Source of the DNA: Escherichia coli
Lineage (GTDB): Bacteria; Pseudomonadota; Gammaproteobacteria; Enterobacterales; Enterobacteriaceae
Length of the DNA: 64,000 nucleotides
NCBI RefSeq assembly: GCF_050920415.1
Contig: NZ_CP169309.1
Direction: 5' to 3' (one strand)
Positions 4,103 to 64,000 of the stretch are shown here, piece after piece. The position numbers and the translations under genes are program-made. The notes beneath the pieces were generated by a model. It was not told the DNA's origin. It saw only the letters and a list, made by a program, of their open reading frames with translations, and searched no databases. Every line of letters starts with the position of its first letter. The first letter of the stretch is position 1.

Positions 4103-4743
4103 TTATATACGTCCTTTAAGATAAGTCAGTCCTGGATGAAACCAGTAAGCAGGCACTTTTTTAAAGGGTGGATTATCAAAATCACGAAGAAGAGCCTCCC
4201 GCACAACTGCATCCTTGTCCGCACCACTGGCCAGCGCTTCAATCTCAGCAGCTACCTGCAGATATCCCATGCAACGACCAATGCGCTTCATTAGTCCCTG
4301 CTTTTTATTGTTCTTCAGGTAATCAATGGCAAATTCAATGAGCGCCTCACTGTGCTGGTGCGATGCTGGTGTTACTTTTCCATCTTCACGGATCGTGATA
4401 TTCCAGTCATCGCTTGTCACAATAAAAGATGGCCGATTCCCCCCCCATGCCTGGTCTTTATCCGGTGCAGACGCAATAAAATAACGTTTATTGCCTTCCT
4501 CTCCGGCACTTTTAACTGTAATGGAGTACTTTTCTGACAATGCGGTCGGTAAAAACTTTTCCTGCAAAATCTTCTCAAAGGTCCTGCGAGCAATTTTGAT
4601 GCAATCATCGTAAAACGCTGCTTCCTGCTCATCGCGGCGTTTTTTTCATCTTCAGAAACCATCAGCACCGACAGTTTTTTATTCAGTTCAGTGATTTCAT
4701 TTTCCAGGCAACTTATGCGCTGATTCATTTCTTCATGGTTCAT
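4103..4743 (-). pseudogene. Hypothetical protein gene between holin and endolysin, interrupted by a frameshift (ORFs 4417-4743 and 4103-4567)
   Basis: N-terminal ORF (MNHEEMNQRISCLENEITELNKKLSVLMVSEDEK) and C-terminal ORF (...QEKFLPTALSEKYSITVKSAGEE...) join into one plausible protein if the A/T run at 4640-4646 had one more base (EDEKKRRDEQEAAFYDDCIKIARRTFEKILQEKF). Confidence 0.5.
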
Positions 4744-5295: not shown

Positions 5296-5523
5296 TATGT
5301 AAACATTTACACTGCTTACCTGCATGGTGCCGGGTGCCTCCCGGTGAATTCAGTATCAGCACCTGAATCCGCAATTATCCCATATACCTACTTGCTGATT
5401 GCCCCTCCGCACAGGGGGATTCACCATGCGAAATTTTTTTAACAAATGCTCAGTCTGACAGGCAACTGTCAACTGGCTGAATTGTGAGACATTTAAAATT
5501 TTCGGGGCGTAACTGATACCCGG

Positions 5524-5688
5524 TTAACTACCTGGCATGTCCTTTTTCACCAAAGGAAAAAGCACCACCACAATACCGACCACCAGCACTCCATCCGCCA
5601 GCACCGACATGATCCTGCTGGTGAAATCCACCATCACCACCAGAAACAGCAGGAGTGCCACAGCGGCCAGACGCAGTTTTACCGTCAC
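5524..5688 (-). CDS. Small hydrophobic membrane protein (54 aa), translationally coupled to TerB-like gene
   Basis: GTG start overlapping the TerB-like TGA stop (GTGA); GGAGAA RBS; product VTVKLRLAAVALLLFLVVMVDFTSRIMSVLADGVLVVGIVVVLFPLVKKDMPGS is almost wholly hydrophobic; below the ORF-track length cut-off. Confidence 0.4.
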   Translation of the reverse strand: MTVKLRLAAVALLLFLVVMVDFTSRIMSVLADGVLVVGIVVVLFPLVKKDMPGS

Positions 5689-6116
5689 AGGTGGTTCTCC
5701 AGTCGCAGGCCAAGAACACCAGCAATCTCTTCCAGAACCTTACGCTCTTCCGGCTCAATTTCACCATCTGCTTCAGCAATGGCCACCGCCACATCCAGCA
5801 CATCTTCCGCTTCACGCGTATCGTGTTTCACATCTTCAATTTCACGCAACGCTGCACGACGACCAATTTTAAAATTGGTGTCAAGCTGACCTGTGATCGT
5901 GGCACTGATGGCATTAATTTCTGACGTAAACGTGGACAACGCTGGCTGGTTACGTAATACCTGTTCGATCTTCGCTTTCTCTGAAGTCTCACATTCACCA
6001 TCTGCATAGGCCACTAGGTAGGCAGCATTAATAACCGCCTGTGCCAGATCGCGTTTCTCAAACTTTTTAATTTCAGTTGCTGCTCTGCGGGTTTTCTTTT
6101 TGAAAATACCAAACAT
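5685..6116 (-). CDS. TerB-like (tellurite-resistance TerB domain) protein
   Basis: 143 aa with paired acidic helices typical of TerB (LAQAVINAAYLVAYADGECETSEKAKIEQVL ... VLDVAVAIAEADGEIEPEERKVLEEIAGVLGL). Confidence 0.7.
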   Translation of the reverse strand: MFGIFKKKTRRAATEIKKFEKRDLAQAVINAAYLVAYADGECETSEKAKIEQVLRNQPALSTFTSEINAISATITGQLDTNFKIGRRAALREIEDVKHDTREAEDVLDVAVAIAEADGEIEPEERKVLEEIAGVLGLRLENHL

Positions 6117-6289
6117 CGTGACTTTTCCTTTTAGTGGGTGAGCCTGCGCCCTGCGGGGACCAGCCCACAGAGAAAGTCACACTGACCATCCCGTAAGCTC
6201 CCCCCTGAAAAGCTCTGTGGTTTTTGATATACGCCGGGCGTGGCGCGGATACAAAAAAGGCCCGCAAAAGCGAGCCAGGAAAATAAGTA

Positions 6290-6366
6290 TGGCGCGTTGT
6301 ACTGGATTCGAACCAGTGACCGATTGCTTAGAAGGCAATTGCTCTGTCCGACTGAGCTAACAACGC
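6290..6366 (-). tRNA. tRNA-Arg (anticodon UCU), phage-encoded
   Basis: Minus strand GCGTTGTTAGCTCAGTCGGACAGAGCAATTGCCTTCTAAGCAATCGGTCACTGGTTCGAATCCAGTACAACGCGCCA folds as a canonical cloverleaf with anticodon loop CTTCTAA. Confidence 0.85.
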
Positions 6367-6379
6367 ATGATGCAGATAA

Positions 6380-6460
6380 TGGACCGCCATCGAGGACTCG
6401 AACCCCGCACCAACAACCCTGTTATCGTGTCGTCTGCTCTTCCTGATGAGCTAATGGCGG
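6380..6460 (-). tRNA. Atypical tRNA-like gene (acceptor, D and T arms present; anticodon arm does not fold canonically; possibly degenerate)
   Basis: Minus strand CCGCCATTAGCTCATCAGGAAGAGCAGACGACACGATAACAGGGTTGTTGGTGCGGGGTTCGAGTCCTCGATGGCGGTCCA: acceptor pairing, GCTC/GAGC D stem, GTTCGAGTC T arm and CCA end, but 27 nt between D and T stems. Confidence 0.45.
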
Positions 6461-6467
6461 TACGTTA

Positions 6468-6542
6468 TGGTGGCCCTGCTGGATTTGAACCAGCGACCTG
6501 GCGATTATGAGTCGCTCACTCTCACCACTGAGCTAAAGGGCC
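6468..6542 (-). tRNA. tRNA with CAU anticodon (resembles E. coli tRNA-Ile2, lysidine type; could be Met type)
   Basis: Minus strand GGCCCTTTAGCTCAGTGGTGAGAGTGAGCGACTCATAATCGCCAGGTCGCTGGTTCAAATCCAGCAGGGCCACCA; anticodon loop CTCATAA; acceptor stem one pair short of canonical. Confidence 0.8.
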
Positions 6543-6582
6543 GGGCGCAGGATAATAACGGTACGTAACTAATTCTGCAATA

Positions 6583-7641
6583 TCATCCGTTCTGACTGAC
6601 TAAATCCTGAACTTCCTTGACCGTCTGCTCAAAACGCTCAGTCTCCAGCTCAACGCCAATTGCACGACGTCCCAGCGCCATCGATGCTTTGACCGTCGAA
6701 CCCGACCCCATGAAAAAATCTGCAACCAGATCTCCCGGACGACTGCTTGCGCTGATTATCTGCTGCAACATTTCTGCCGGTTTTTCGCACGGATGTTTCC
6801 CGGGATAGTACTGCACCGGTTTATGCATCCACACATCGGTGTACGGCACCTGCACAGTCACACCGAAATACCGCCGCAAATTTTTATATTCTCTCAGCAG
6901 TTCCGTATACTGCCGGTTCAGTTCACTGTATGTGCTGACCAGCTGGTGGTGTGGCTGCTCCAGTTCACCGCGCTGATGTTTTTCTGCTGCAACACGCGCA
7001 AACAACGCCTGCAATTTGTTGTAATCAGCTTCGTTCGGTAACTGCCACTGACTGGTACCAAACCAGTGCGAAGCCATGTTTTTCTTTCCGGTGGCTTCCG
7101 CTATCTGTTTTGACGTTATTCCCAGTTCGGCACGAGCATCCCTGAAATACGATATCAGCGGTGCCATTATGTGCTGTTTGAGTTCCCTTTCTTTTGCCGC
7201 ATAGCCGTCACTTTTGCCGCGATATGGCCCCTGGTAATGTTCAGCAAACAGAACGCGCTCTGTGGCAGGAAAATATGCGCGCAGACTTTCTTTATTACAC
7301 CCATTCCAACGTCCGGACGGCTTCGCCCAGATGATATGGTTAAGCACGTTGAAACGTTCACGCATCATGATCTCAATATCAGATGCCAGGCGATGCCCAC
7401 AGAACAGGTAAAGGCTTCCGGCAGGTTTCAACACCCGCCAGAACTGGGCCAGACAGTGGTCCAGCCACTTAAGATAATCTTCGTCCCCTTTCCACTGATT
7501 GTCCCAACCGTTGGGTTTCACCTTGAAGTAAGGCGGATCGGTAACAATCAGGTCAATGGAATCATCAGGCAGGGACTGAATAAAATGCAGGCAATCAGCG
7601 TTGATTAAATCAACACTGTTTATTTTTACAGTATTTTTCAT
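6583..7641 (-). CDS. DNA methyltransferase (N6-adenine or N4-cytosine, DPPY motif), no adjacent restriction enzyme
   Basis: 352 aa with IVTDPPYF catalytic motif and C-terminal AdoMet motif DLVADFFMGSGST. Confidence 0.85.
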   Translation of the reverse strand: MKNTVKINSVDLINADCLHFIQSLPDDSIDLIVTDPPYFKVKPNGWDNQWKGDEDYLKWLDHCLAQFWRVLKPAGSLYLFCGHRLASDIEIMMRERFNVLNHIIWAKPSGRWNGCNKESLRAYFPATERVLFAEHYQGPYRGKSDGYAAKERELKQHIMAPLISYFRDARAELGITSKQIAEATGKKNMASHWFGTSQWQLPNEADYNKLQALFARVAAEKHQRGELEQPHHQLVSTYSELNRQYTELLREYKNLRRYFGVTVQVPYTDVWMHKPVQYYPGKHPCEKPAEMLQQIISASSRPGDLVADFFMGSGSTVKASMALGRRAIGVELETERFEQTVKEVQDLVSQNG

Positions 7642-7791
7642 GGATCAGTAAGCGTAACTCTGGTAGGCTCACTCTGCTTTTGCGCTAAAGCAGTGGGCCG
7701 TGGTTCGCTTGTGACCAGTAAGCATGAGCGAATGGCTGGCAGGTGCTACCAACACCCACCAGCCGCCCATTTTCACAGCAGGAAACCGCCA

Positions 7792-12072: not shown

Positions 12073-12395
12073 ACTTTCAGGCCCCTCTCATGTAACCAGT
12101 GGGTTGCACGCAGCCTGGCGTTTTCCTCACCGGCAAGCAGTGAGCGGATAATCCCGACCGCCTCGCTGTCGTCGTCCTTCATCGCAGTATGAAGCGTTAT
12201 CCCCCGGGCCACGCCACGCTTTATCGTGATGACGCCTTTTTTCTCCAGTGCGCGAAGATGCTCCACCGCTGCATTCACTGAACGGTATCCCAGCATGGTT
12301 GCCACCTCCTGATTGGTTGGCGGGAAGCCACGTTCTTTCTGATAAGAAATCAGCATATCCAGCACCTGCTGCTGGCATTGAGTTAACGTCGTCAT
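12069..12395 (-). CDS. LexA N-terminal-like winged-helix DNA-binding protein (no peptidase domain)
   Basis: MTTLTQCQQQVLDMLISYQKERGFPPTNQEVATMLGYRSVNAAVEHLRALEKKGVITIKRGVARGITL parallels the LexA N-terminal domain; ATG overlaps the upstream gene stop (ATGA). Confidence 0.75.
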   Translation of the reverse strand: MTTLTQCQQQVLDMLISYQKERGFPPTNQEVATMLGYRSVNAAVEHLRALEKKGVITIKRGVARGITLHTAMKDDDSEAVGIIRSLLAGEENARLRATHWLHERGLKV

Positions 12396-13044
12396 GCCGC
12401 CATCTCCCTGACCAGTTTTTCCGCCTGCTGGCGAACCTGCGCCAGAAACGCCTCACCACATGCCTCAAGTTCATCGCGCCCGATGTAGCTGATTGCCGGT
12501 CCCTTCCAGGTCTGTCGAAAACAGCAATAGCACCAGCGAAGAAAGCGCCTGTCGGCACCTGCTTCTCATCTTTCGGGATAAACCAGGCAGGCAGTTCAAA
12601 ACCAATACGCCCGCGAATAAAAGCAATATGATCTGCATCTTCCGGCCACCACACTTCGCTGGTGGCAGCTTTGATCAGGAAAACATAGCGCCCGCCTTTA
12701 TCACGCATGGCACTGGCATGTTTCATGATGTAACGCATGCCGGTGATGTATTGCCCCTCATGCTGACTGGCGCGGCTGTATGGGGGATTACCAAAGGCAG
12801 CACCTTTAAGCTCCGCAAGACGTTCTGACCAGTCATGCGCCAGCGCGTTGTCTTCCGCCGTGTAATACGCGGTACATTTGGCGTTATCACCGTCAGTAAA
12901 CAGATCCAGGACAAACGGGCCAAACAGGGTGTTAATTCCCCAGAAAATGTTACCCGGCGTGCGCCACTGATCGCCCACTTCCTTCAGTTCATGGGCTGGT
13001 TTGTTCCGCAGTTCCACCAGCGCCCGGCAATATTTATTACTCAT
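12392..13044 (-). pseudogene. Phage Dam-family N6-adenine DNA methyltransferase with a 1-nt frameshift near 12505-12522
   Basis: N-terminal frame: MSNKYCRALVEL...GAAFGNPPYS...FFAGAIAVFD. C-terminal frame: QTWKGPAISYIGRDELEACGEAFLAQVRQQAEKLVREMAA, ending in TGA overlapping the next ATG. One extra A in the A4 run (about 12518-12521) would join them. The 316-aa ORF-track read-through has an Arg-rich junk tail. Confidence 0.7.
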
Positions 13045-13532: not shown

Positions 13533-14353
13533 AATCCCCCCCTGAATCCTGCCGGGATCTGGCTGTAGTCCACGTTGTCGTAACTGGCTTTGAAGTACGG
13601 GTCCTCGCGTCTGGCTGCAGATACCGCAGGAACTTCCCAGGATTCTTCGAAATGACGATCCGGACCAAAGAACGTGACAGCCTGTTTCACAAATTGTGTG
13701 CCGCTGTTACCCATCGCAGATACCCAGCCCGCGTAGCGTTTCACACCTTCCAGCATGGTTTCGGGGTTTACTCCCTCATTCAAACGGGCTTTCCAGGCTT
13801 TGAAGGCTGCAGATTTTGAATTGCCACCAGCACGTTTGGGATATGCCAGCCATGCCTGCTCAAACTCCGGAGAGTATTCCGGTCGGTTTGAACGAACTCG
13901 CACGGACTCATCAACTGATGCACCAACAGCTATTGGTTCATTGACTGGTTCTTTGACTGGTTCAAAAGAGTGACTGGTTCTGGGTGAATCTCCTGCACTA
14001 CCCCCTGGTGCAACTCCTGCACTACCTGGTGAATTTGCTGCACCAGATAGTGAATTATTTGCACTACCCCCTAGTGAATCTCCTGCACCATCCAGATGAA
14101 GGAGATAGATATTACTTGAGTTACCTTTTTCACCTTTCCGGGTGACTTTTTTTACCAGCCCGGACTCACAAAGGGCCGCAATATGATTCATCACAGAACG
14201 TTTGCTAATCTCGCACTGGTCAGCAATATGCTGGTAGCTGGGCCAGCACTCACCCTGATCGCTGGCATTATCAGCCAGCTTGATCAGAACCAGTTTTCGC
14301 AATGGATTACCCACTCGAATTTTCATCGCTTTAACCATCAGCTCCATACTCAT
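13529..14353 (-). CDS. Replication initiation protein (HTH N-terminal domain, internal repeats, C-terminal helicase-loader-interaction-like tail)
   Basis: 274 aa; N-terminal HTH (WPSYQHIADQCEISKRSVMNHIAALCESGLVKK), central Gly/Ser/Ala/Pro repeats encoded by iterons, C-terminus ...SQIPAGFRGGL resembling the DnaT C-terminus in this window (SQIPPGFRG). Confidence 0.7.
   Translation of the reverse strand: MSMELMVKAMKIRVGNPLRKLVLIKLADNASDQGECWPSYQHIADQCEISKRSVMNHIAALCESGLVKKVTRKGEKGNSSNIYLLHLDGAGDSLGGSANNSLSGAANSPGSAGVAPGGSAGDSPRTSHSFEPVKEPVNEPIAVGASVDESVRVRSNRPEYSPEFEQAWLAYPKRAGGNSKSAAFKAWKARLNEGVNPETMLEGVKRYAGWVSAMGNSGTQFVKQAVTFFGPDRHFEESWEVPAVSAARREDPYFKASYDNVDYSQIPAGFRGGL
13940..14100. repeat. 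Iteron-like direct repeats (candidate origin of replication) inside the replication initiator gene
   Basis: GACTGGTTC three times, then about five imperfect 18-20 bp repeats of the TCCTGCACTACC(C)CCTGGTGAA type. Confidence 0.6.
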
Positions 14354-19908: not shown

Positions 19909-20445
19909 ATGTCATTTATCAAAACTTTTTCTGGGAAGCATTTTTATTATGACAGGATAAATAAAGACGACATCGATATTAACGATATCGCGGTTTCCCT
20001 TTCAAATATCTGTCGCTTTGCCGGTCATCTTTCGCACTTCTACAGCGTCGCCCAACATGCGGTTCTTTGCAGCCAGCTGGTGCCGCAGGAATTTGCTTTT
20101 GAAGCGTTAATGCATGATGCAACAGAAGCGTATTGCCAGGACATTCCCGCACCACTGAAACGCCTTCTTCCTGACTATAAACGGATGGAAGAAAAAATAG
20201 ACGCCGTAATCCGTGAGAAATACGGGTTACCCCCGGTTATGAGTACACCCGTGAAATATGCCGATCTCATCATGCTGGCAACCGAACGCCGCGATCTCGG
20301 GCTTGATGATGGCTCTTTCTGGCCTGTACTGGAAGGCATCCCGGCAACAGAGATGTTCAACGTGATTCCACTGGCACCGGGCCATGCCTACGGGATGTTT
20401 ATGGAACGTTTTAACGATTTATCGGAGTTACGCAAATGCGCATGA
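19909..20445 (+). CDS. YfdR-like HD-domain phosphohydrolase
   Basis: 178 aa from MSFIKTFSGKHFYYDR...; HD motif region HFYSVAQHAVLCS...LMHDATEAY. Confidence 0.75.
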   Translation: MSFIKTFSGKHFYYDRINKDDIDINDIAVSLSNICRFAGHLSHFYSVAQHAVLCSQLVPQEFAFEALMHDATEAYCQDIPAPLKRLLPDYKRMEEKIDAVIREKYGLPPVMSTPVKYADLIMLATERRDLGLDDGSFWPVLEGIPATEMFNVIPLAPGHAYGMFMERFNDLSELRKCA

Positions 20446-20798
20446 ATGTTTTCGAAATGGAAGGGTTTCTTCGCGGGAAATGTGTACCGCGAGATCTGAA
20501 AGTGAACGAAACAAATGCTGAGTACCTGGTACGTAAATTCGACGCGCTTGAAGCTAAATGTGCGGCACTGGAAAACAAAATAATACCAGTGTCAACTGAA
20601 CTGCCACCAGCAAATGAAAGTGTTCTGTTATTTGATGCTAATGGAGAAGGCTGGCTGATTGGCTGGCGTTCTCTCTGGTACACCTAGGGACAAAAAGAAA
20701 CCGGAGAATGGCAGTGGACATTTCAGGTCGGGGACCTTGAAAACGTCAATATCACTCACTGGGCAGTAGTGCCAAAAGCACCGGAGGCTGGAGCATAA
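20436..20798 (+). pseudogene. YfdS-like gene interrupted by an in-frame TAG at 20685-20687
   Basis: The frame continues after the TAG as GQKETGEWQWTFQVGDLENVNITHWAVVPKAPEAGA and ends at a TAA overlapping the next ATG (TAATG at 20796-20800); total length 120 codons. Confidence 0.5.
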
Positions 20799-21577
20799 TG
20801 ACCACATTTACCAATAAAGAACTGATTAAAGAAATCAAAGAACGAATCAGCAGCCTAGAGGTTCGAGACGATATTGAGCGCCGTGCTTATGAAATTGCTC
20901 TGGCATCGCTAGAAGAGGAGCCGGTGGCGTGGCTGCATTCAGAAAATGGCTTAGGTATTCCGGCAATAACGAGGAGTAAAAACATTGCTGACAGTTGGTT
21001 ATCAAAGGGCTGGTATGTTCAGCCGCTATATATAGCCAAGCCAGTGCCGGTAGTGCCAGATGCTCGTCCGTCTTTAAATAATGGCATAGTCGGTTTTGAT
21101 GAAGGCTGGAACGCCTGCCGCGCCGCCATGCTTCATGGTGCCGAACCTGTAAACCAAACTTACAAGTCACCACACACGCAGTTTGAACAAGTTGCTGACC
21201 TCTACGAAATGCAATTTGATGACGGTCGCACTTGTGCCTTTCACACTGATGCGCAAAAGGCTGCGCAATGGCTTCAGGTGTGCGACGGAAACAGGGTTCA
21301 GGAATACGTTAAGCTGGAACGGCTGCAGAACGCGCTGTCTGGCAACTCTCCGGTAAGTCCAGGTGGTTGGATAAGCTGTAGTGAGCGAATGCCGAATGAT
21401 AAACAGTATGTTTGGTGTTGGGGGAAGTCTTACGGCTGGACTGAGTGCGATACCTTCGAAGGGTATTACGATTGGTCGAGAAACAAATGGTGGGCAGTTA
21501 CTGACAATGAGGAAGAACAGGCATCGAAAGTAACCCACTGGATGCCACTACCGGAGCCGCCGCAGGAGGTGAAGTAA
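20798..21577 (+). CDS. Hypothetical protein with DUF551-like Trp-rich C-terminal region
   Basis: 259 aa; C-terminal WISCSERMPNDKQYVWCWGKSYGWTECDTFEGYYDWSRNKWWAVTDN...HWMPLPEPP pattern. Confidence 0.6.
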   Translation: MTTFTNKELIKEIKERISSLEVRDDIERRAYEIALASLEEEPVAWLHSENGLGIPAITRSKNIADSWLSKGWYVQPLYIAKPVPVVPDARPSLNNGIVGFDEGWNACRAAMLHGAEPVNQTYKSPHTQFEQVADLYEMQFDDGRTCAFHTDAQKAAQWLQVCDGNRVQEYVKLERLQNALSGNSPVSPGGWISCSERMPNDKQYVWCWGKSYGWTECDTFEGYYDWSRNKWWAVTDNEEEQASKVTHWMPLPEPPQEVK

Positions 21578-21771
21578 TGAACAACTTAATGACAACTAAA
21601 CAAGTCGCCGATTTCTGTGGTGTTTCAGTATCGACAGTTCTTCGCTGGAACAGCGTAAACAGGAGAACTGGTCAGAAATACAGGCCTGACTTTCCAGATC
21701 CTGATATTAAATCCTGCCCAAATAAATGGGCATCACACAAGATTTACAGATTTGCGGGAGTGATTGAGTAA
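21577..21771 (+). CDS. xis: Excisionase / AlpA-family HTH protein
   Basis: 64 aa with TTKQVADFCGVSVSTVLRWN motif; last gene of the pL operon next to int. Confidence 0.7.
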   Translation: MNNLMTTKQVADFCGVSVSTVLRWNSVNRRTGQKYRPDFPDPDIKSCPNKWASHKIYRFAGVIE

Positions 21772-22053: not shown

Positions 22054-22773
22054 TTAAATCTCTGTTTCTTTTCCTGCTCGGCTCAACCAATACTCCATTG
22101 TTTGAGTATGAATCTTTTCAGCGTATATTTTATCAATTAATTTATCTTGTTTTTCTTTAATGACTTCACGCAGTGAATCATATAACATAAAAAAACGTTC
22201 ATCATCTTCCTCATTATTACCGTAATTTATTTGATTGAGCTCTGAAAAAATATGATAGTACCTTTTTTTCTTGGTCCCCGGCAATATTAAAACCAAGCCA
22301 CATTGATCATATTCGAATTCACCTTTATGGGCAGCAAAGTTATGTCTAACATTCATAATAGAATCATGTAAATCTCTATATTTTTCTGGCACATGCTTTC
22401 TCTGCAATGTGAATCGACGCCCTTTCGCCTCTGTAAAACACTTACCGTAAGTAACAACTTTTGATATAAACAAAGACTTTAATATTAGATTCTTTTCTAA
22501 ATCCGGATAAATAAAGTGTTGTTCTTTATTAATGTTATTACAAATATTTTTTATTATATTCTCCCAACCAATAACATTCCGAAGATCTTTATCAAGCAAC
22601 TGTAAGGCCACATATTGTTCTACAAAGCGGCCTTTTAAAGGTATTCGTGGTAATATTACACCTTTCTGCTTATAAATTCTTTCTATCGTATTATCTGGAT
22701 ATTGGATCTTCCTTATTTCTATTCCGTCTTCTTCTGATACCCTTACTAATGGTTCATTTTTTAACTTTGACAT
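22054..22773 (-). CDS. Hypothetical protein with HEPN-like R-x5-H motif (candidate abortive-infection/defence protein)
   Basis: 239-aa ORF in a strongly AT-rich segment between xis and int; contains NVRHNFAAHKGEF (R-x5-H); no other family recognised. Confidence 0.6.
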   Translation of the reverse strand: MSKLKNEPLVRVSEEDGIEIRKIQYPDNTIERIYKQKGVILPRIPLKGRFVEQYVALQLLDKDLRNVIGWENIIKNICNNINKEQHFIYPDLEKNLILKSLFISKVVTYGKCFTEAKGRRFTLQRKHVPEKYRDLHDSIMNVRHNFAAHKGEFEYDQCGLVLILPGTKKKRYYHIFSELNQINYGNNEEDDERFFMLYDSLREVIKEKQDKLIDKIYAEKIHTQTMEYWLSRAGKETEI

Positions 22774-23012
22774 GTTAACCCTCTTAAATAAAAAACTAAC
22801 TTTATCCAGATAGTGTCCGTTAAGAAGTTTTCGTTACAACTAAGTTTCTAGGTAAATCATGAATCGACCTATAGTATCAAAAACATTTGGTGGTAAACAT
22901 CTGCATTTATCAAATGGCAGGAGCGATTTAGGGGCATAGGGATAGTGATGATATCGATACCCGCCCCCTCTTATGTCAACACAATGGCGTAAACTTAACG
23001 CTCACATCTCGC

Positions 23013-24269
23013 TCAAAGTGTGCTAGGAGATTTGGTTATGTTCAGGTGATACAAACCGTCAGTTTGACAATTAACAATCGATTCAACCCTCTTCCACCAT
23101 GCCAGGTAAGCTTTACGCTGTTCTTCTAGATAATCACTCTTATCATAAACTTGCCATACCCCTGGCAGCTTATGACCAAGCATAATTTCTGCGATATGAG
23201 GCGCAGTAAGATCAGAAAAATTTGTTCGAGCTGTACGTCTCAAGTCATGAAGAGACCAATGAGGGAATTGATATCCTAAACACCGCCATGCGTACTGCAT
23301 TAAATTGTAAGGCAGCGACTGCAATGATGTCCGACCAACGGGTTCCCTGCTTCCTTCCTTAGTAAAAAGCATATCGGAACCATTGTTCATAGAGATAGCG
23401 TACTTTATAAGCTCTTCAACCGGTTCAATAATGGGCCGCTTTAGCGGTTCGCCTGTTATCTCCCCAGTCTTATGTCGTTCTGGTGGTACAGTCCATACTT
23501 TATTAATGAAATCAAAATCGTCCACCCGGGCGGTAATTAGCTCTGAACTACGGCAACCAAAATGCAGCAATAGTTTAATGAAGGCCCGGTATTTAGGAAC
23601 CATTCGAGAACCATCGATCGCAGCATAAAGGATTTTAATTTCATCATGTGTCAGAAACCGTTTCTTCTGACCTTTACGGATATCCATATCTTTACCCGTG
23701 ATATCCGACAGCGGGCGAGTTTCAATGAGCTTTCTCTTATACGCCCAGACATGGGCCTGCTTTGCGTTAATTAGCAATCGGTCTGCTATTGCTGGAGTCT
23801 TAGTGCTAAGAGGCTCCAGGACTTCTAACCAATCATGCAATGTAGCTGCATCGTGAGGGATATTCCCGATTTTAGAGAACAGGTGCAGCTCAAACGAGCG
23901 AAGTATCTGTTCAGAACCTTTTTTATTTTTTACACAATATGCTTCATACCAAGCACGGATCACAGACTCTACCGTCATGGCTTCAGTAGCTTTTCGTTTT
24001 TCAGCCTGCTTGACCAATCGTGGATTACGGTTTGACTCGAGTTCACCACGAAGACGGATAACTTCTTCTCTGGCCTCTTTTAATCCAGTTGCCGGGTAAG
24101 TTCCGATATCAAGACGCTCACCTTTCCCTGCCCATTGATAACGATATTGGAACACTACGCGACCTTTCGGTGATACTCTGACAGACAGACCATCACGATC
24201 GGATTTAACCAAAACCTTATCACGTTCCTTTCCAACGACTGAACGCAACCACGCATCAGACAGCGCCAT
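23013..24269 (-). CDS. int: Tyrosine-type phage integrase
   Basis: 418 aa; C-terminal catalytic region with HDLRRT and LGH...Y pattern. Confidence 0.9.
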   Translation of the reverse strand: MALSDAWLRSVVGKERDKVLVKSDRDGLSVRVSPKGRVVFQYRYQWAGKGERLDIGTYPATGLKEAREEVIRLRGELESNRNPRLVKQAEKRKATEAMTVESVIRAWYEAYCVKNKKGSEQILRSFELHLFSKIGNIPHDAATLHDWLEVLEPLSTKTPAIADRLLINAKQAHVWAYKRKLIETRPLSDITGKDMDIRKGQKKRFLTHDEIKILYAAIDGSRMVPKYRAFIKLLLHFGCRSSELITARVDDFDFINKVWTVPPERHKTGEITGEPLKRPIIEPVEELIKYAISMNNGSDMLFTKEGSREPVGRTSLQSLPYNLMQYAWRCLGYQFPHWSLHDLRRTARTNFSDLTAPHIAEIMLGHKLPGVWQVYDKSDYLEEQRKAYLAWWKRVESIVNCQTDGLYHLNITKSPSTL

Positions 24270-24284
24270 TACTCACCTTGTACA

Positions 24285-24480
24285 AATCGCAAAACACCTC
24301 TGCTGTTTTGTACATTATGTACAAGCATATGTACAGATTTTTGATGAAAGCAAGCTGATCGATTTAAAGTTACATGAAAGAGTTTTCAATTAAAGAAGCT
24401 ACATAACCAAATGTATTTAAATGAGTTACATAACTCAACCTAAATTAACTGAAAGGATTTTGAAAGAGTAAAAGAGCTTT
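24285..24480. other. Probable attachment-site region (attR side) with integrase arm-type repeats
   Basis: Clustered TGTACA/TTGTACA motifs and two TACATAAC repeats between int start and host yjjG; core site not resolvable without the other prophage end. Confidence 0.4.
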
Positions 24481-24654
24481 AATTTGGGCTTAATTATTGG
24501 GGTGAGAAATAATGGCAAAAGTGCGGCGCTTCGCCACCTCTTGCAAATAAGGAGACAACGTCATAATTCTTTCTTCTTGAGTAAGCGGCATCGCGCCGCG
24601 CTTGTTGAAAACGAAAAATTGCGGCTATTTTACCCATCAACGGGGGGGAGGCAA

Positions 24655-25332
24655 TCAGTGTTTACACAGGAGCTGCTCCAGTTCGTGCAACGAAGAAACG
24701 GTCCAGGTAGGCGCGATGCCTTCTGGTTGCTCGCGATTGTGAGCATTCAGCCAGCAGGTCGCAAGCCCGGCGTTGATGCCACCGAGAATATCGGACTCGG
24801 CAGTGTCGCCAACCATCAGCACGCGTGAACGGTCAGGATTGCCCGCCTGTTCCAGCGCATAATCGAAAATTTTCTTATTCGGTTTGGCTACGCCAACTTC
24901 TTCGGAAATCACCAACAAATCGAAATAATCACGCAGGCCCGTGCGTTCCAGACGCACTTGCTGCAAGGCGCTAAAGCCGTTGGTGATGATGCCGATTTTG
25001 GCGTTGCCGCGAATGGCATTAAGCAGGGAAACCGCGCCCGGCAGCGGTGTGCAAATTTCCGCCATCGCATTAATGAAGGCCTCGTTGAGTTTACCTGGCT
25101 CGACGTTCAGCCGTTCGGCCCAGCTCTCAAAACGCCCGTGCTGAAGCTGTAATGAAGTGATCGCACCGTTTTGATAATCTACCCACAGGGGCTTGTTAAC
25201 GGCCTGATAGTCCTGAAAATCTTCAGCGGTAAAAGTGACGCTGTAATCAAGAAACATCCGCTGCAGGCCGGTGAACGAGTCAAAAGTAAACAGCGTTTCA
25301 TCGGCATCAAAGAAAATCCAGTCCCACTTCAT
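24655..25332 (-). CDS. yjjG: Pyrimidine 5'-nucleotidase YjjG (HAD family)
   Basis: 225 aa [17 protein letters not shown]... HAD motif; gene order matches K-12. Confidence 0.9.
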
Positions 25333-25346
25333 TATTCCACCTTGTC

Positions 25347-25793
25347 TTACATACTGATTGGCAACGCCATGATGATGGCGTCTTCGCGACCGTCCTTGGT
25401 GGGGTAGTAATTGCGGCGAATCGTCGCCTCGTTAAAGCCTAAACTTTCGTACAGGGCAATGGCGGCAGCGTTTGAGGCACGGACTTCCAGCCATAGTGTC
25501 GCCACGCCGCGTTTTTCCAGTTCGTCGATCAGATGTTCCAGCAGCGCCCTTCCCAGCCCCTGACGCTGATAGTCGGGATCGACCGCAATATTGAACAATG
25601 TAGCTTCATCCAGCACCACTTGCGTAATCGCAAACGCCGCCATTTTGCCGTTTTGCGTTAACTGAAAGTTGAGATAACGCTCGCCCTGGTTGCTGGCAAA
25701 GGTTTTTTCACTCCACGGAAAGGCGTGGGCGCGTTGTTCAATGTGGTAAGCCGCTGGTAAATCAGTCGTTTCGAGGGAAGAAATCGTGTTCAT
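25347..25793 (-). CDS. rimI: Ribosomal protein S18 alanine N-acetyltransferase
   Basis: 148 aa from [25 protein letters not shown]...; GNAT motif [10 protein letters not shown]. Confidence 0.9.
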
Positions 25794-42364: not shown

Positions 42365-42545
42365 GGTTTCTCTTTCCACTAGACAGATACACTGGTTGTC
42401 GGCCTGGTGGTGGAAAACTTTATGCTGTGGAAAAGCGTCGGCACTGCTTTTGTTGCAGCAAACTTGCGTTTTTTGTGAGGGTCACACTCTATAGCGGCAG
42501 TTTATGGTACAAAGTATCAATCTTCTTCGAACCAGTGATACTCCT

Positions 42546-43409
42546 ATGGCTTATAGCATCGATATCATCTCCTGCATTACCGAACGATTTATGGCGTTAA
42601 CAGCCACTGAAAAGCGTATCGCACAATTTATTCTTGATGACGTCTCTGCCGCAGTAGAGTTGCCAATTGCTGAGCTGGCACGGTTAACGCAAACCAGTCA
42701 GGCGTCGGTGACGCGTTTTGCCCGTGCACTGGGGTGCAAAGATGTCCGCGAGTTGAAAGTCAAACTGGCGCAGTCACTGGCTGTCGGGCAGCGGTTTATT
42801 CTCGATGTACCGGATCTTGACGGTGTTCAGGGGATCTACGAAGCGATTATTAGCGTGCTGGAAACGCATCGTCGTTCGCTGGATATGAATGCCATCAGCC
42901 AGGCTGTAAGCTGGTTAAGTCAGGCGCGGCAAATTCTTGCGTTAGGAACTGGCGGCGGTTCCACTATCTGTTCACAGGAGATTCAGTACCGTTTATTCCG
43001 TCTGGGGCTACCAGTGGTCAGTCAGAATGATGCCCTGATGATGAGAATGATGTGCTCGGCAGTGATGCCGCAGGATGTGGTGATTGTGCTGTCGCTGGGC
43101 GGTTATACACCGGAAATCATCGAAAGTGCGGCAATCGCCCGTCAGTATGGCGCGCGTGTTATTGCCATTACGCCAGCACAAACACCGCTGGCAGAACAGG
43201 TAGATCTGGTATTGCCGCTGCTGGTTCAGGAGAGTGATTACATCTTTAAACCCACGCCTTCCCGCTACGCGATGTTAGCCATGGTCGATGTACTGGCAAC
43301 GGAACTGGCAATGGCAAATAAAGCGCAGGCGAAAGATCGCCTGCGGCGGATAAAACTGGTGTTAGACAGCCACCGTGGGGGCGCTAACCGCCAGCCACTT
43401 GGCGATTAG
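42546..43409 (+). CDS. RpiR/MurR-family transcriptional regulator (HTH plus SIS domain)
   Basis: N-terminal HTH_6 (ELPIAELARLTQTSQASVTRFARALG) and SIS domain; first gene of island. Confidence 0.8.
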   Translation: MAYSIDIISCITERFMALTATEKRIAQFILDDVSAAVELPIAELARLTQTSQASVTRFARALGCKDVRELKVKLAQSLAVGQRFILDVPDLDGVQGIYEAIISVLETHRRSLDMNAISQAVSWLSQARQILALGTGGGSTICSQEIQYRLFRLGLPVVSQNDALMMRMMCSAVMPQDVVIVLSLGGYTPEIIESAAIARQYGARVIAITPAQTPLAEQVDLVLPLLVQESDYIFKPTPSRYAMLAMVDVLATELAMANKAQAKDRLRRIKLVLDSHRGGANRQPLGD

Positions 43410-43418
43410 CATTGTCGG

Positions 43419-44888
43419 TTATGCTTCTTCAGGTTTGGTGATCACGACACTCTGGTTTTCACGCTCATTGGTGATAATAGCCAAAGCTTCTTCCCGGCTG
43501 ACCTGACTTGCTGGCGTTACCAACGTCACCAGTACGCCAGCGACCAGGCTGCCCAGCACTGACGGAATACACGGGTTACCCCAGTAAGCCAGCCAGTCGG
43601 CATTCATCAGCACCACAATTGACATCACCATACCGCTCACTAACGCCGCCAGCGCGCCCTGCCAGTTAAAGCGTAGCCAGAAGCGACCGAGAATCGAGCA
43701 GATAAACAGCCCGGACATCAGCATCGAAATCATTTTGGTAATGTAGCTGATGATGTCATTAGAGGTCAGAGCAAAGACCAGCGCCAGGCCAATAACAAAG
43801 GTCAACATCCAGCGTGAGTAAGTAATGGCCTTGTCCTCCGGCGGCATTCTGCCGGTAATCATGGTGTAGACGTCGCGCATCATAATCGCCACTGCCGCAA
43901 TGGCATCAGAACTGGCAGAAGACATGGTGGCAGAAAGCCCGGCAATCAGCACCACCAGCCCAAGAATGGCAGGTAAGAAGCTGGTCGCGAACAAGAAGGC
44001 ATAGTTACTGTTTTCCAGATTCGGGTTCATGGTGAACGCCGCCATGCCGATAATGGCAGGCAGAATCGAGAAGAACAGATACAACACGCCAGTAATAACA
44101 AATGAACGCCGTACAGAGGGAACGTCTTTTCCCGAGTAAATACGCTGGCGATAAGATGGTGTGGCCAGTACGCCGACACCAATAACCAGCGCCAGCGAAA
44201 GCGCAGGCAGCACGCCCATTTTATCAATCGCAAACAGGCTCATCGCTTTTGGGTCCATCGCCTGCTCAATCGCACTCCAGCCACCAACGTGAACAACGGC
44301 AAGAATAGCCATTAATATAAAGCCAAAGAACAGAATTAGGGCCTGAATGGTATCGGTCCACACTACCGCCGAATAACCGCCGATAATAACGTAAATCGCA
44401 AAAGCTAAGGCAATAATTAATTTTGCCACCGTAAGATCAATACCTGTTGCCCAGGCAAGATACATACTTCCACCTAATATATGCGCCCCCAGCCAGCCAA
44501 TAGAGGCAATAAATATCATCATGCCGACAATGTTTTTAATTAAATGACTGCCGCCAGTATAATAAGATATTTCTTCACTCATGGTCATAAAACGTAATTT
44601 ACGTACCGGTGCAAACAGCCACGCCACCAGTAATATACCTACGGCCCCACCGACGCCATAAAGCATTCCGGCCCAGCCATTGCTGTAGCCAAAGCCCACT
44701 GCGCCCATACTGGAACCCGTGCCAACCATCGTGGCAACGGTTGACCCCAGCGTCAGAAACAGCGGCAGCGAACGCCCGCCCAGCAGAAAATCTTCTCCGC
44801 TTTTCTGATTACGAGAAACAAACCAACCAAGCCAAATCATGGCGATGGCATAAATAATAAAGCCGACTAAAAAGATATGACTGTTCAT
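43419..44888 (-). CDS. Sodium:solute symporter (SSS) family transporter
   Basis: 489 aa, about 13 TM, SSS-like N-terminal pattern (GGRSLPLFLTLGSTVATMVGTGSSMG). Confidence 0.8.
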   Translation of the reverse strand: MNSHIFLVGFIIYAIAMIWLGWFVSRNQKSGEDFLLGGRSLPLFLTLGSTVATMVGTGSSMGAVGFGYSNGWAGMLYGVGGAVGILLVAWLFAPVRKLRFMTMSEEISYYTGGSHLIKNIVGMMIFIASIGWLGAHILGGSMYLAWATGIDLTVAKLIIALAFAIYVIIGGYSAVVWTDTIQALILFFGFILMAILAVVHVGGWSAIEQAMDPKAMSLFAIDKMGVLPALSLALVIGVGVLATPSYRQRIYSGKDVPSVRRSFVITGVLYLFFSILPAIIGMAAFTMNPNLENSNYAFLFATSFLPAILGLVVLIAGLSATMSSASSDAIAAVAIMMRDVYTMITGRMPPEDKAITYSRWMLTFVIGLALVFALTSNDIISYITKMISMLMSGLFICSILGRFWLRFNWQGALAALVSGMVMSIVVLMNADWLAYWGNPCIPSVLGSLVAGVLVTLVTPASQVSREEALAIITNERENQSVVITKPEEA

Positions 44889-44990
44889 AATTCACATCCT
44901 GCCAGTAGAGAGAGAATAATGTAAGAGTTCCCGGAGTGCTGAATGTATTCAGCACTCAATTGCGGTCTGTTTTTTTAATTCTTAAATTTA

Positions 44991-45386
44991 TTAGCGGGTC
45001 GCGTTATAACAGGTCACATCGACTTCGACTTTACAATCGACAACCAGATCAGCCACACAACAAATACGTGCAGGCGGATTCTCGCCAAAAAATTCTCTGA
45101 ATACTTTATTAAATGACTGGAAATAGCGGGCGTCGGTCAGGATCACTTTCACGTGAACCACATCCGCCAGGCTATAACCGGCTTCAGTCATGATGTCGAC
45201 ACAGTTTTGGATCGCCAGTCGTGACTGTTCAACGATTCCGCCTTCTACCACTTCACCGTTTTTCATGGGTGTTTGCCCGGAGACGTACAGCCAGCCGCCC
45301 GCCTCAACCGCCCTGGCAAAAGGCAAATGCTGCCCGCCAGTGCCTGTTCCACCTTCCGTACCGTAACGTTTAATGCTCATATTCAC
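44991..45386 (-). CDS. RidA/YjgF-family protein (start uncertain)
   Basis: About 130 aa with Rid-family C-terminal pattern (ARICCVADLVVDCKVEVDV). Confidence 0.7.
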   Translation of the reverse strand: MNMSIKRYGTEGGTGTGGQHLPFARAVEAGGWLYVSGQTPMKNGEVVEGGIVEQSRLAIQNCVDIMTEAGYSLADVVHVKVILTDARYFQSFNKVFREFFGENPPARICCVADLVVDCKVEVDVTCYNATR

Positions 45387-45389
45387 TCC

Positions 45390-46841
45390 TTAATGTGAGG
45401 TCTGCCGGCGCAGGAAGCGTCCCGCACGGCCTGTAATATGTTTATCGCGACCATAGCTCATAACGCCGTTCACCATCACCGCCTCAATGCCATCTGCCGG
45501 GCGTTTGGGATCAGAAAAGCTGGCAACATCACGAATGGTTTGTGGATCGAACAACACCAGGTCCGCAAAATAGCCAACTTTCACCAGTCCACGCTGGGGC
45601 AGGCGAAAACGGCTGGCAGAAAGCCCGGTCATTTTGTGGATAGCCGTGGTCAGAGGGAATAAACCTTCATCACGGCAATAGTGACCCAGCACGCGAGGGA
45701 AGGCGCCCCATAAACGTGGATGCGGCATGGGATCATTGGGCAGGCCGTCAGAGCCAATCATACTGACTGGATAACTCAATACTCTGCGGACGTCGCGCTC
45801 GTCCATGTTGTAATAGATAGCCCCGGCAGGCATTAGCAGCTTCGCGGCCTCCAGCATACTCATCTGCCAGTCGATGGCGATTTGCGCCAGTGTTTTCCCG
45901 GCCTGCTGCGGATGTGTTTGTGACCAGGTGATCACAATATCGAATTCGTCGGTGACTTGTTTGAGATCCAGCGTTGAAGAGCTGGCTGAGTAAGGGTAGA
46001 CATCGCAGCCAATTTCCTGGTGTTGACGCATTTGGTCAAAAAAAGCCAACGTTTCTTTTGTCCGCCCCCAGTTTTTCGCCCCGGCGCATTTATGGTGGGA
46101 AACCACGACAGGCACTTTGCCATGACGCCCAATACGAAACGCCTCATCCAGGGCATCGAGAATCGGTTCAAATTCAGAACGCAGATGGGTGGTATAAACG
46201 CCCTTCTCACCGGCTAATTCTTCCGCCAGCGCCATGACTTCTTCGGTAGTCGCCTGAAATGCTGTGGCATAGGCCAGCCCGGAACTTAACCCCAGCGCCC
46301 CCTGACTCAACGCCAGACGTAAGTCGGCGCGCATGGCGGCAATTTCATCCGCCGTCGCCGGGCGAAACAGGTCGTCCATATGGTTATTACGCAGCGCCGT
46401 ATGACCAATCAGCGTGCCAACGTTCAGTGACGGCCTGGCTGCTTCCACTGCCTGGGCATAGCTTTCAACGGTAGGATAAATAAAGTGCTCCGCTTCCCCC
46501 AACAGATTCATCGGGTCAGGAACTTCGCCTTTCATTTTCGCCGACGCCGCACTGATCCCGCAGTTACCGACAATCACCGTGGTGATCCCCTGGCTGATTT
46601 TTGGCAGATATTCCGGGATGCGAATAACGTTGATATCGTCATGGGTATGAACGTCGATAAACCCTGGTGCCAGCACCCGCCCTTCCCCGTCAATGACCTG
46701 CTGCGCCGTAACGTTAAGCGCAGGGGCAATATCGACAATCCGATCACCTGTTATTGCCACGTCACCGCGAAATTCAGGGCCGCCGCTACCGTCGATAACG
46801 GTCACATTTTTGATTAACCAGTCAACCTGCATGTTCGTCAC
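45390..46841 (-). CDS. D-aminoacylase (N-acyl-D-amino-acid deacylase), amidohydrolase superfamily
   Basis: 483 aa; metal-binding HxH start (GFIDVHTHDD) and D-aminoacylase-like architecture. Confidence 0.75.
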   Translation of the reverse strand: MTNMQVDWLIKNVTVIDGSGGPEFRGDVAITGDRIVDIAPALNVTAQQVIDGEGRVLAPGFIDVHTHDDINVIRIPEYLPKISQGITTVIVGNCGISAASAKMKGEVPDPMNLLGEAEHFIYPTVESYAQAVEAARPSLNVGTLIGHTALRNNHMDDLFRPATADEIAAMRADLRLALSQGALGLSSGLAYATAFQATTEEVMALAEELAGEKGVYTTHLRSEFEPILDALDEAFRIGRHGKVPVVVSHHKCAGAKNWGRTKETLAFFDQMRQHQEIGCDVYPYSASSSTLDLKQVTDEFDIVITWSQTHPQQAGKTLAQIAIDWQMSMLEAAKLLMPAGAIYYNMDERDVRRVLSYPVSMIGSDGLPNDPMPHPRLWGAFPRVLGHYCRDEGLFPLTTAIHKMTGLSASRFRLPQRGLVKVGYFADLVLFDPQTIRDVASFSDPKRPADGIEAVMVNGVMSYGRDKHITGRAGRFLRRQTSH

Positions 46842-47032
46842 TCCATTTCTGCAATGGTGACAAGTTAACCATTTACAAGGATGAAAAACAGTGGAAAACT
46901 ACGCAAAACCCAGATGATTTTATGATACTTTTATTCATAAACTATAAGATAAATAAACTAAATATTTATATTTCATTTAGTTACAAATGATACTCACATC
47001 CGATACGGTGAAAAACTTAAAAGGTAAATGTT

Positions 47033-48253
47033 ATGAAATACCACTCAGAACCTCTGGTTCCCCATAAATCGGCCCTGATGCAAATGCCCGCAAATCTCCT
47101 TGCCGAAGATGTCTGTTTACCTGCCGCGATCATTAAAAAGCAGGCCCTGGAGAACAACATTACGTGGATGCAGCGTTATGCTGACGCGCGCGGCGTTTCG
47201 CTGGCACCGCACGGTAAAACCACCATGACGCCGTGGATTTTTCAGGCGCAGCAGGCGGCTGGTGCCTGGGCAATAGGTGTCGGTAGCGCATGGCAGGCTG
47301 GTGCGGCAATGGCGAGCGGTATTCAGCGAGTGCTGATGGTTAACCAGCTGGTCGGCAAGGCGAATATGCAGTTGATTGCCCGGTTGCAACAACATTACCC
47401 GACGGTCGATTTTATCTGCTGTATCGACAGCATTGAGAACGCCCGCGCTTTGTCTGCCTTTTTTGCCAGTCAGCAACAGACACTGAACGTGATGATTGAG
47501 CTGGGTGTTCCCGGCGGACGCTGTGGTTGCCGCTCAACGGATGCCGCACTGGCACTGGCTAAACAGGCGGCCCAATTACCAGGGCTACGTCTGCGCGGGC
47601 TTGAGTTATATGAAGGTGTTTTACACGGTGACGATCCACAACCGCAGGTAGAAGCTCTGCTGCGGGATGCCGCACAACTGGCCTGTGATATGGCAAGTCT
47701 GGTTGATGGCGAGTTTATTCTCACCGGAGCAGGCACGGTCTGGTATGACGTGGTGTGCAATATCTGGCTGGCGGCAGAAAAGCCTGATAACTGCCGCATT
47801 GTTATTCGCCCTGGCTGCTACATCACTCACGACACCGGGATCTACGACGCGGCACAACAACAGTTGCTTGCCCGCGATCCTGTGGCCTGCGATCTTGCAG
47901 GCGATCTCACATCTGCGCTGGAACTGGTCGCCATGGTGCAATCGGTGCCGGAAGCTGATCGTGCGGTGGTAAATTTTGGTAAGCGTGATTGCGCCTTCGA
48001 CGCCGGACTGCCGCAACCAGTCGCCCACTACCGCAACGGCAAATCACTGGCATTTGATCCACAGGCGATTCGCAGTACAGGTATTATGGATCAGCACTGC
48101 ATGTTGCAACTGTCAGCTAATAGCGACGTGCAAGTGGGGGATATTCTGGTGTTTGGCACATCGCATCCGTGCCTGACCTTCGACAAATGGAAAACGTTGT
48201 TATTGGCTGATGACGACTACAACGTACTGGCAGAGCTGGATACGCTGTTTTGA
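47033..48253 (+). CDS. PLP-dependent enzyme with alanine-racemase-like N-terminal domain (D-serine dehydratase-like / D-threonine aldolase-like)
   Basis: 406 aa; PLP-lysine context (APHGKTT) and fold-type III pattern. Confidence 0.65.
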   Translation: MKYHSEPLVPHKSALMQMPANLLAEDVCLPAAIIKKQALENNITWMQRYADARGVSLAPHGKTTMTPWIFQAQQAAGAWAIGVGSAWQAGAAMASGIQRVLMVNQLVGKANMQLIARLQQHYPTVDFICCIDSIENARALSAFFASQQQTLNVMIELGVPGGRCGCRSTDAALALAKQAAQLPGLRLRGLELYEGVLHGDDPQPQVEALLRDAAQLACDMASLVDGEFILTGAGTVWYDVVCNIWLAAEKPDNCRIVIRPGCYITHDTGIYDAAQQQLLARDPVACDLAGDLTSALELVAMVQSVPEADRAVVNFGKRDCAFDAGLPQPVAHYRNGKSLAFDPQAIRSTGIMDQHCMLQLSANSDVQVGDILVFGTSHPCLTFDKWKTLLLADDDYNVLAELDTLF

Positions 48254-48311
48254 TAGCGCAGATGGCGGGTTCCTTCCCGCCATTAATTGTATGTATATCC
48301 TTAAGTATCTA

Positions 48312-49322: not shown

Positions 49323-49333
49323 TTTCTACTCCT

Positions 49334-50935: not shown

Positions 50936-50946
50936 AGTGATGCCCT

Positions 50947-52557: not shown

Positions 52558-52572
52558 AATCTCTCCCCCACC

Positions 52573-53493: not shown

Positions 53494-53644
53494 CTTTGGT
53501 TTCCTTATTGTCAATCTGTTGCGTCAATGTGAATTAAAAGTGAATCTTCATTAACAGATTGACCTCTCCTTGCGCTGGCGGCTTGTCGATTTTCTTTCCC
53601 CAGGATGACGAAATTAGCACAATGCCCAGTTGTGATTTGTCGTG

Positions 53645-54472: not shown

Positions 54473-54783
54473 AGTTGTTCCTCATAGCGATTGAGGATGA
54501 ATGTTTATTAACCTTTGATTAACATGACAAGTACTGAAAGTGCATTTTGCGATCCTTCCGTGTATTTCCACTTTCCGTTGCTCTCACTACTGACGAACGC
54601 TTGTTCCTGGTCTAACACATCACTAACAAAATGATTAATATTAAAAAAACATGACCACTCCTGGTGTCGCGAAATAATTCACTGTGCTGATTTCGTCATT
54701 TCCCTTGCAGAAACCCTTCAAGCGATAAAGTTGCAATTACGCCAGCATTTAGAAACATTTTGTTAACCACATGGAGCCAGAGC

Positions 54784-56837: not shown

Positions 56838-57097
56838 GTGGCACCATTAGAATTTTTATTGCCGGACAGCCCTGGTTTGTCCCGACGGGTATTAGCGTAG
56901 CGGCGGCACTGGCCTTAACTGATAACCCCATTACGCGCCTTTCGGTGAGCGGGCAACCACGTACGCCCTTCTGCGGCATGGGCGTTTGCCAGGAGTGTCG
57001 GGTGAGCGTTAATGGTCGTCGGGTACCCGGTTGTCAGACCCTTTGCCAGCCAGACATGCAGATTGAAAGGAGCGGATATGCAGACCTTACAGTGTGA
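56834..57097 (+). CDS. Small [2Fe-2S]-binding protein (dehydrogenase subunit)
   Basis: 87 aa with Cys motifs CGMGVCQECRV...C; overlaps both neighbours. Confidence 0.65.
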   Translation: MSGTIRIFIAGQPWFVPTGISVAAALALTDNPITRLSVSGQPRTPFCGMGVCQECRVSVNGRRVPGCQTLCQPDMQIERSGYADLTV

Positions 57098-63986: not shown

Positions 63987-64000
63987 AGGGCGAAATCCGC

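Follow-up and report, generated by a model that had tools for sequence, protein, structure and literature searches.

Attachment junction of a lambda-like prophage within the 5′ end of prfC in Escherichia coli

Introduction

In a stretch of 64,000 nucleotides of the Escherichia coli contig NZ_CP169309.1 (hereafter the window), the integrase gene of a prophage is found close to yjjG, at the place where E. coli K-12 has prfC, the gene of release factor 3 (RF3). This raises the question of which DNA the phage recombined with and of what became of prfC. A preliminary description, made from the window, had placed the prophage immediately downstream of yjjG, in place of prfC, and held that the attachment core could not be defined from one end. 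By comparing both prophage ends with K-12, we conclude, with a probability of about 0.92, that the attR of a 47.65-kb lambda-like prophage, inserted inside prfC, occupies positions 24270–24655. None of the tests run contradicts this anatomy of the junction.

Toxin-converting phages (Stx1a, Stx2c and CDT-I) and SXT/R391 resistance elements integrate at prfC, and with the junction and its 14-bp core known, prophages are easier to delimit and competition between phages and integrative and conjugative elements (ICEs) for the site is easier to predict. Recognising the junction also avoids miscalling prfC as disrupted; its importance goes little beyond such correct annotation.

The attachment core and the split prfC gene

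The junction is composed of the following features (window positions):

1–24513: right-hand 24.5 kb of a lambdoid prophage, which continues past the left window edge (RefSeq annotation, core positions)
24270–24499: P arm of attR, phage DNA (30% GC; contiguous with the P′ arm in phages 2H10, cdtI and Ayreon)
24490–24564, minus strand: stranded native 5′ end of prfC (K-12 alignment; an ORF of 24 residues that stops in phage DNA)
24500–24513: attR core GGGTGAGAAATAAT (three-way identity; annotation of LC727876)
24565–24654, minus strand: native yjjG–prfC spacer, identical to K-12
24655–25332, minus strand: yjjG, encoding pyrimidine 5′-nucleotidase, the intact chromosomal neighbour (ORF and RefSeq annotation)

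The far junction was read in NZ_CP169399.1 (strain MFDS1022581), which is 100% identical over window positions 23000–25400 and in which window position x corresponds to position x + 4451831. According to its RefSeq annotation, the far prophage end abuts prfC, beyond which come osmY and then genes in the same order as in K-12. In a three-way alignment of K-12 attB, the window attR and the far-end attL, the 14-bp core GGGTGAGAAATAAT is identical at window positions 24500–24513, at positions 13681–13694 of the attL locus (L002) and in K-12, and the flanks swap reciprocally. The direct repeat that was to be looked for at the left prophage end of the full genome is thus present, the core is defined through that other end, and the prophage-free yjjG–prfC region of K-12 provides the corresponding 14-bp attB. 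From core to core the prophage measures 47,651 bp (NZ_CP169399.1, 4428680 to 4476344).

On the prfC strand the core reads ATTATTTCTCACCC and comprises codons I18, I19, S20 and H21 and the first two bases of P22 (prfC nucleotides 52–65), at the start of the segment encoding AIISHPDAGKT, where the GTPase P-loop of RF3 begins. The insertion point lies inside prfC, 145 bp from the yjjG stop. On the yjjG side, the native start codon is retained at 24564–24562 and the native start sequence (24514–24564) runs up to the core; RefSeq calls this fragment a partial pseudogene (the equivalent of 24496–24564). The gene is split and not missing; its body is separated from this fragment by 47.65 kb and is found beyond the window, where the prophage has its opposite end.

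Within the window alone, the integrase sits where K-12 has prfC, and one could suppose that the phage targets intergenic DNA just 3′ of yjjG and that the whole of prfC was displaced or lost. We regard this as extremely improbable, and the comparison of attB, attL and attR refutes it: the first 65 nucleotides of prfC and the upstream spacer persist at 24500–24654, the switch to phage DNA falls inside the coding sequence, and the remainder of prfC continues from the identical core on the far side of the prophage. Since the native prfC fragment and the K-12-identical spacer still lie beside yjjG, the prophage is inside prfC and not immediately downstream of yjjG. The preliminary description was therefore right in recognising a prophage end, and its boundary does fall within the interval 24270–24655 that it had proposed, but the target is codons 18–22 of prfC. 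It had overlooked the 65-nucleotide prfC fragment at 24500–24564 and had the AT-rich phage stretch followed by the 3′ end of yjjG, whereas 155 bp of native chromosome, namely these 65 nucleotides and the 90-bp yjjG–prfC spacer, lie between the P arm and yjjG.

That this is not a tRNA locus, as had also been remarked, agrees with our analysis: there is no tRNA gene at the junction, the nearest chromosomal one being at 27618, and no Rfam family was identified in 23900–24900, where a single chance-level match was obtained (lin-4, E = 0.99). With no tRNA or tmRNA 3′ end at the core and no Rfam match, the class of tRNA-targeting, P4-like integrases was rejected.

The junction is a common one, the attR side being present in 699 of 5426 complete E. 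coli genomes (about 13%) and the attL side in 691. Database entries of Stx1a and Stx2c phages bear the annotation 'duplication due to insertion' on these 14 bp, LC727876 being one of them.

Integrase, candidate excisionase and neighbouring gene

Three genes of the prophage lie closest to the junction:

23013–24269, minus strand: tyrosine integrase (Int), 418 amino acid residues, assigned to the IntSXT subgroup, prfC-targeting cluster (Pfam domains, identity)
22054–22773, minus strand: gene of 239 amino acid residues between xis and int, in a stretch of 32% GC (phrog_8440, unknown function, E = 1e-142)
21577–21771, plus strand: candidate excisionase, 64 amino acid residues, HTH_17-like (phrog_1553 'excisionase', E = 4e-36, full length)

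Transcription of the integrase ORF (minus strand) leads away from the junction, as the preliminary description had it. Its product contains the Pfam domains Arm-DNA-bind_3, Phage_int_M and Phage_integrase, of which the arm domain (DUF4102/Arm-DNA-bind_3, PF13356) is matched at residues 3–90 with E = 2.2e-16 and the catalytic domain (PF00589) with E = 3.7e-17. In an alignment of 14 homologous sequences, Arg240, Lys267, Arg344, His366 and Tyr375 are invariant and His341 is nearly so; by likeness to lambda Int, these R-K-H-R-H-Y residues would be the catalytic ones. Sequence identity of the integrase amounts to 98% with the Int of phage cdtI and to 39%, across the full length (E = 1e-89), with the Int of an SXT/R391-type element, with intermediate values in relatives from Salmonella (84%), Serratia (60%), Vibrio (52%) and Shewanella (51%). 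In all four of these relatives the native prfC fragment ends at the same codon. Judging by its domains, pairwise identities and target site, the integrase appears to belong to the IntSXT subgroup and to its prfC-targeting (SXT/cdtI) cluster; the integrases of the cdt1 phage and of SXT were previously placed in one prfC-targeting cluster (Smyshlyaev et al., 2021; PMC8138268).

The candidate excisionase is matched weakly by Pfam HTH_17 (E = 1.4e-4), and the RefSeq annotation of the 100%-identical genome has no CDS at 21577–21771. The product of the 239-residue gene has no match in Pfam, NCBIfam or PADLOC. Phage 2H10 carries a 720-nucleotide CDS beside int at the corresponding position, a likeness of length and position. 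We consider that this is probably an accessory ('moron') gene.

Repeated motifs in the P arm and the free-phage attP

Two groups of repeats were identified between the integrase start and the core:

24279–24335: cluster of four TGTACA, proposed arm-type Int sites (clustering, conservation, mirrored on the P′ arm)
24390–24434, plus strand: 18-nucleotide direct repeats TTAAAGAAGCTACATAAC and TTAAATGAGTTACATAAC, 83% identical, which hold TACATAAC (repeat search)

The preliminary description had noted that the integrase start abuts an AT-rich stretch with repeated TGTACA and TACATAAC, which is what we observe: the GC content of 24270–24499 is 30%, against 50% for the whole window, with four copies of the former motif and two of the latter. 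It took both for arm-type sites, which we can follow for TGTACA, conserved and present on both arms, and not for TACATAAC, found in near-identical phages only.

The TGTACA copies start at 24279, 24309, 24318 and 24330, so that four of the eight copies in the 64-kb window fall within 57 bp (Poisson P ~2e-10 per 70-bp window). A 22-nucleotide unit within the cluster, ATTATGTACAAGCATATGTACA at 24314–24335, recurs on the P′ arm; in the attP of phage 2H10 the two copies of this unit, ATTATGTACAA(G/T)CATATGTACA, have the same orientation and lie on either side of the core at a distance of 264 bp. The attP reconstructed from the phage sides of both junctions is 511 nucleotides long and contains eight TGTACA, four per arm. 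It is present in one piece, with 95–97% identity, in the free phages 2H10, cdtI and Ayreon, in all of which it adjoins the integrase gene directly; the contiguity of attP is accordingly an observation on these relatives and not on this prophage itself. No IHF consensus site (WATCAANNNNTTR, at most one mismatch) was found in the reconstructed attP.

TGTACA is also present within about 90 bp upstream of int in all four relatives from Salmonella, Serratia, Shewanella and Vibrio. In the alignment of these relatives, whose integrases are 51–84% identical to that of the window, three TGTACA blocks beside int are invariant, while the flanking and core-to-motif sequences have diverged. The conservation in these relatives, the arm-binding domain of the integrase and the presence of the motif on both arms of attP support the reading of the TGTACA repeats as arm-type sites, to which Int would bind.

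The positions of some copies could be read otherwise. The copy nearest int is 10 nucleotides from the start codon, beside the ribosome-binding site, and two copies are 21–38 nucleotides upstream of the surrogate prfC start at the far end, positions that are typical of operators; the motif might then be an operator or promoter element for some other regulator of int or prfC, such as an excisionase or a repressor. We find this unlikely, as TGTACA accompanies the integrase in elements that otherwise differ in their genes (lambdoid phages, genomic islands and SXT/R391 ICEs), it occurs on both arms as direct repeats, in the fashion of arm sites, and the integrase has a domain dedicated to arm binding. 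The two roles are not exclusive, since bound Int could also autoregulate, and with a TGTACA copy 10 nucleotides from the int start codon such autoregulation is possible.

Copies of TACATAAC are located at 24400 and 24427, two of the three in the window (both strands). Phage cdtI preserves these repeats only in part, the relatives from Salmonella, Serratia, Shewanella and Vibrio lack them, and the alignment led us to reject TACATAAC as a conserved site. Since it is conserved only in near-identical phages, we assign no function to it; the 18-nucleotide repeats might conceivably be bound by an accessory protein, such as Xis or a factor of the host.

The surrogate prfC start and transcription across the junction

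At the far end of the prophage, phage DNA provides the 5′ end to which the body of prfC is joined, so that 16 residues replace the native 17 and the hybrid RF3 has 528 residues, compared with 529 in K-12. The 13 codons shared by the surrogate and native starts (from E to H) show six synonymous and no non-synonymous differences. Differences that are exclusively synonymous indicate that the surrogate coding sequence has been under selection on the encoded peptide. In the listed genomes with the complete attL junction, the annotation gives prfC as an intact gene. A consensus scan of the prfC strand revealed no sigma-70-like site upstream of the surrogate start codon, and our case for expression of the hybrid prfC therefore comes solely from sequence conservation.

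We read the course of events as follows. Int recombined the phage attP at the 14-bp core inside prfC codons 18–22, and this integration has stranded the native promoter region, the start codon and the first 17 codons of prfC beside yjjG. The N-terminal domain of Int would bind TGTACA, at four copies on the P arm and four on the P′ arm, for assembly of the intasome, and the 64-residue excisionase candidate would direct excision. The hybrid prfC would be driven by a promoter in the phage DNA that precedes the surrogate start codon, and transcripts that begin in the native prfC promoter region or come from yjjG would run into int.

In the native spacer we identified a promoter-like site on the minus strand, TTGCCT-16-TAAAAT (24654 to 24627), which is a consensus match only and which, since the insertion, is directed across the prfC fragment and the P arm towards int. 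Consensus scans showed no terminator-like site in 24100–24800 and no int promoter inside the P arm. Host transcription would reach int, as no terminator-like site lies in between. One can go further and imagine a promoter swap, in which the host prfC promoter and read-through from yjjG drive int and the level of RF3 is tied to the state of the prophage; this is a speculative suggestion that we hold to be rather improbable. The same low confidence applies to its counterpart at the far end, where the only candidate prfC promoter would overlap two Int arm sites, beside a SOS-controlled dinI-like gene. Should the promoter swap be true, RF3 levels, and hence the fidelity of translation termination, would depend on the prophage state.

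Two LexA-box-like sequences, CTGTTTATTCATACAG and CTGTATACAAATACAG, at positions 13897–13950 of the attL locus, overlap a promoter-like site of the DinI-like gene. As this gene is divergent from the hybrid prfC, a gene apparently under SOS control is placed beside the new upstream region of prfC.

Gene content and state of the prophage

In the RefSeq annotation of the 100%-identical genome, the prophage comprises terminase, head, tail, lysis cassette, Q antiterminator, replication and immunity modules. By these gene modules and by the contiguous attP of its relatives, the element is classified as a lambdoid temperate phage, an assignment made from sequence features. The annotation of the whole prophage includes no stx or cdt gene and, being without toxin genes, does not place the element in the class of Stx- or CDT-converting phages. 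The class of SXT/R391 ICEs does not fit either, since the element consists of phage genes and its int is oriented differently.

PGAP flags frameshifts in the genes for the portal protein (outside the window), an Rz-like lysis protein and a methyltransferase. Frameshifted, interrupted or partial genes are annotated within the window at 2172–2638, 4103–4743, 12392–13044, 20436–20923 and 21338–21577, the flagged genes being an Rz-like lysis gene, a hypothetical gene, an adenine methyltransferase gene and genes left of xis. These flags reflect either real decay or assembly errors. In view of the frameshifts in the portal, Rz-like and methyltransferase genes, virion production may be lost, and this copy of the prophage would then be unable to make virions.

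It is conceivable, in consequence, that the junction is a fossil, in which the prophage is defective and fixed and the att sites are no longer functional. The portal, lysis and methyltransferase genes and two small genes marked by PGAP as frameshifted or interrupted, together with the partial genes between yfdR and int, speak for this. The integration module itself points the other way: both cores are identical at 14 of 14 positions, the int ORF is intact with its catalytic residues conserved, the candidate xis ORF is of full length, and near-identical integration modules occur in phages that were isolated as virions. Moreover, the frameshifts could be assembly errors, and a defect in virion production would not block excision. 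We give the fossil junction a lower, although appreciable, likelihood.

A tRNA cluster is located on the minus strand at 5500–7650, where ARAGORN identified Arg-tct and Met/Ile-cat and PGAP adds a third tRNA. It lies downstream of a DNA methyltransferase gene and the Q antiterminator gene, and is followed by TerB-family and DUF3927 genes. This tRNA-linked position, occupied here by the TerB-family and DUF3927 genes, is the one where Stx phages carry stx. The prophage looks like a toxin-free relative of the Stx phages that use the prfC site.

Relation to other elements that use prfC

Integration at prfC is real here but ordinary, and the case adds nothing new in kind: publications or sequence records already contain the site, the altered N-terminus of RF3 and the duplication of 14 bp. 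What we add is small: the prfC-targeting group as a whole shares a conserved TGTACA arm motif, and the surrogate start has diverged by synonymous changes only.

The closest known elements are phage cdtI (AB285204), the Escherichia phages 2H10 and Ayreon, and the Stx1a and Stx2c phages at prfC in EHEC O103 and CC119 (Ogura et al., 2007; LC727876–LC727899 of Nakamura et al., 2023). The likeness to the cdtI and Stx phages extends to the integrase (98% identity with cdtI), to attP (95–97% over 511 nucleotides) and to the same 14-bp duplication and, for the Stx phages at prfC, to the changed RF3 N-terminus with removal of the native ribosome-binding site and promoter (PMC2323221). It differs from the Stx and CDT phages in having no annotated stx or cdt, and from cdtI also in the C-terminal tail of Int, which diverges after residue 401, and in the accessory gene beside int, which is not the same one. 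An Stx1 phage in prfC was described to alter a short N-terminal region of RF3 and to remove the native ribosome-binding site and promoter, the expression of prfC being reported as unknown (Ogura et al., 2007; PMC2323221). Stx1a and Stx2c phages were later mapped at prfC (Nakamura et al., 2023; PMC10132054), and prfC is among the genes scored as disrupted by phage integration (Bobay et al.; PMC3603311).

In phage 21 and e14, which integrate at icd, and in others that insert into a protein-coding gene and bring a substitute gene end, the phage likewise carries a near-copy of the gene end that it displaces, and such a copy leaves the host ORF intact, a principle of phage-carried substitute gene ends that has been cited previously (PMC3603311). 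In those phages it is the 3′ end that is replaced, whereas at prfC it is the 5′ end, so that the promoter and the translation start are exchanged too.

The SXT/R391 family provides a more distant comparison. A published attL primer site (PMC8386438) allowed us to recover 38 SXT-type loci from many bacterial species, most of which carry a native prfC fragment with a shared 12-residue end. At these 38 junctions, the sequence varies between hosts up to the end of the CAYCCN codons and, directly beyond them, is the constant sequence of the element; the switch point in the prfC 5′ end overlaps or abuts the phage core. The two systems also share a homologous three-domain integrase (39% identity), arms with GTGTACAAA motifs and, in the case of the SXT Xis, a protein of the HTH_17 type. 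SXT is moreover reported to supply a replacement 5′ end for prfC (Hochhut and Waldor, 1999). Nevertheless, SXT/R391 elements are conjugative, whereas the present element is a phage; SXT int is convergent with xis and reads towards the junction, whereas int starts at the junction and reads away from it here; and the stranded prfC fragment of SXT is two codons longer (…HPDA compared with …HP).

In three of the 38 SXT-type loci (L022, L033 and L042) there is no prfC-like fragment upstream of the element arm, and these look like secondary-site integrations. Two others (L018 and L046) failed the remnant pattern yet show prfC-like codons.

Chromosomal surroundings

Beyond the junction, about 16 kb between tsr and btsT (window positions about 42500–58400) contain genes for a MurR-family regulator, for catabolic enzymes of D-amino acids and hydroxyproline, and for transporters. 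This block, which we take to be absent from K-12 at that position, is probably a variable metabolic island. Towards the right-hand end of the window (62200–64000), a BrnA antitoxin gene adjoins a truncated BrnT toxin gene; next come a gene for a restriction endonuclease and the beginning of a type I restriction-modification system.
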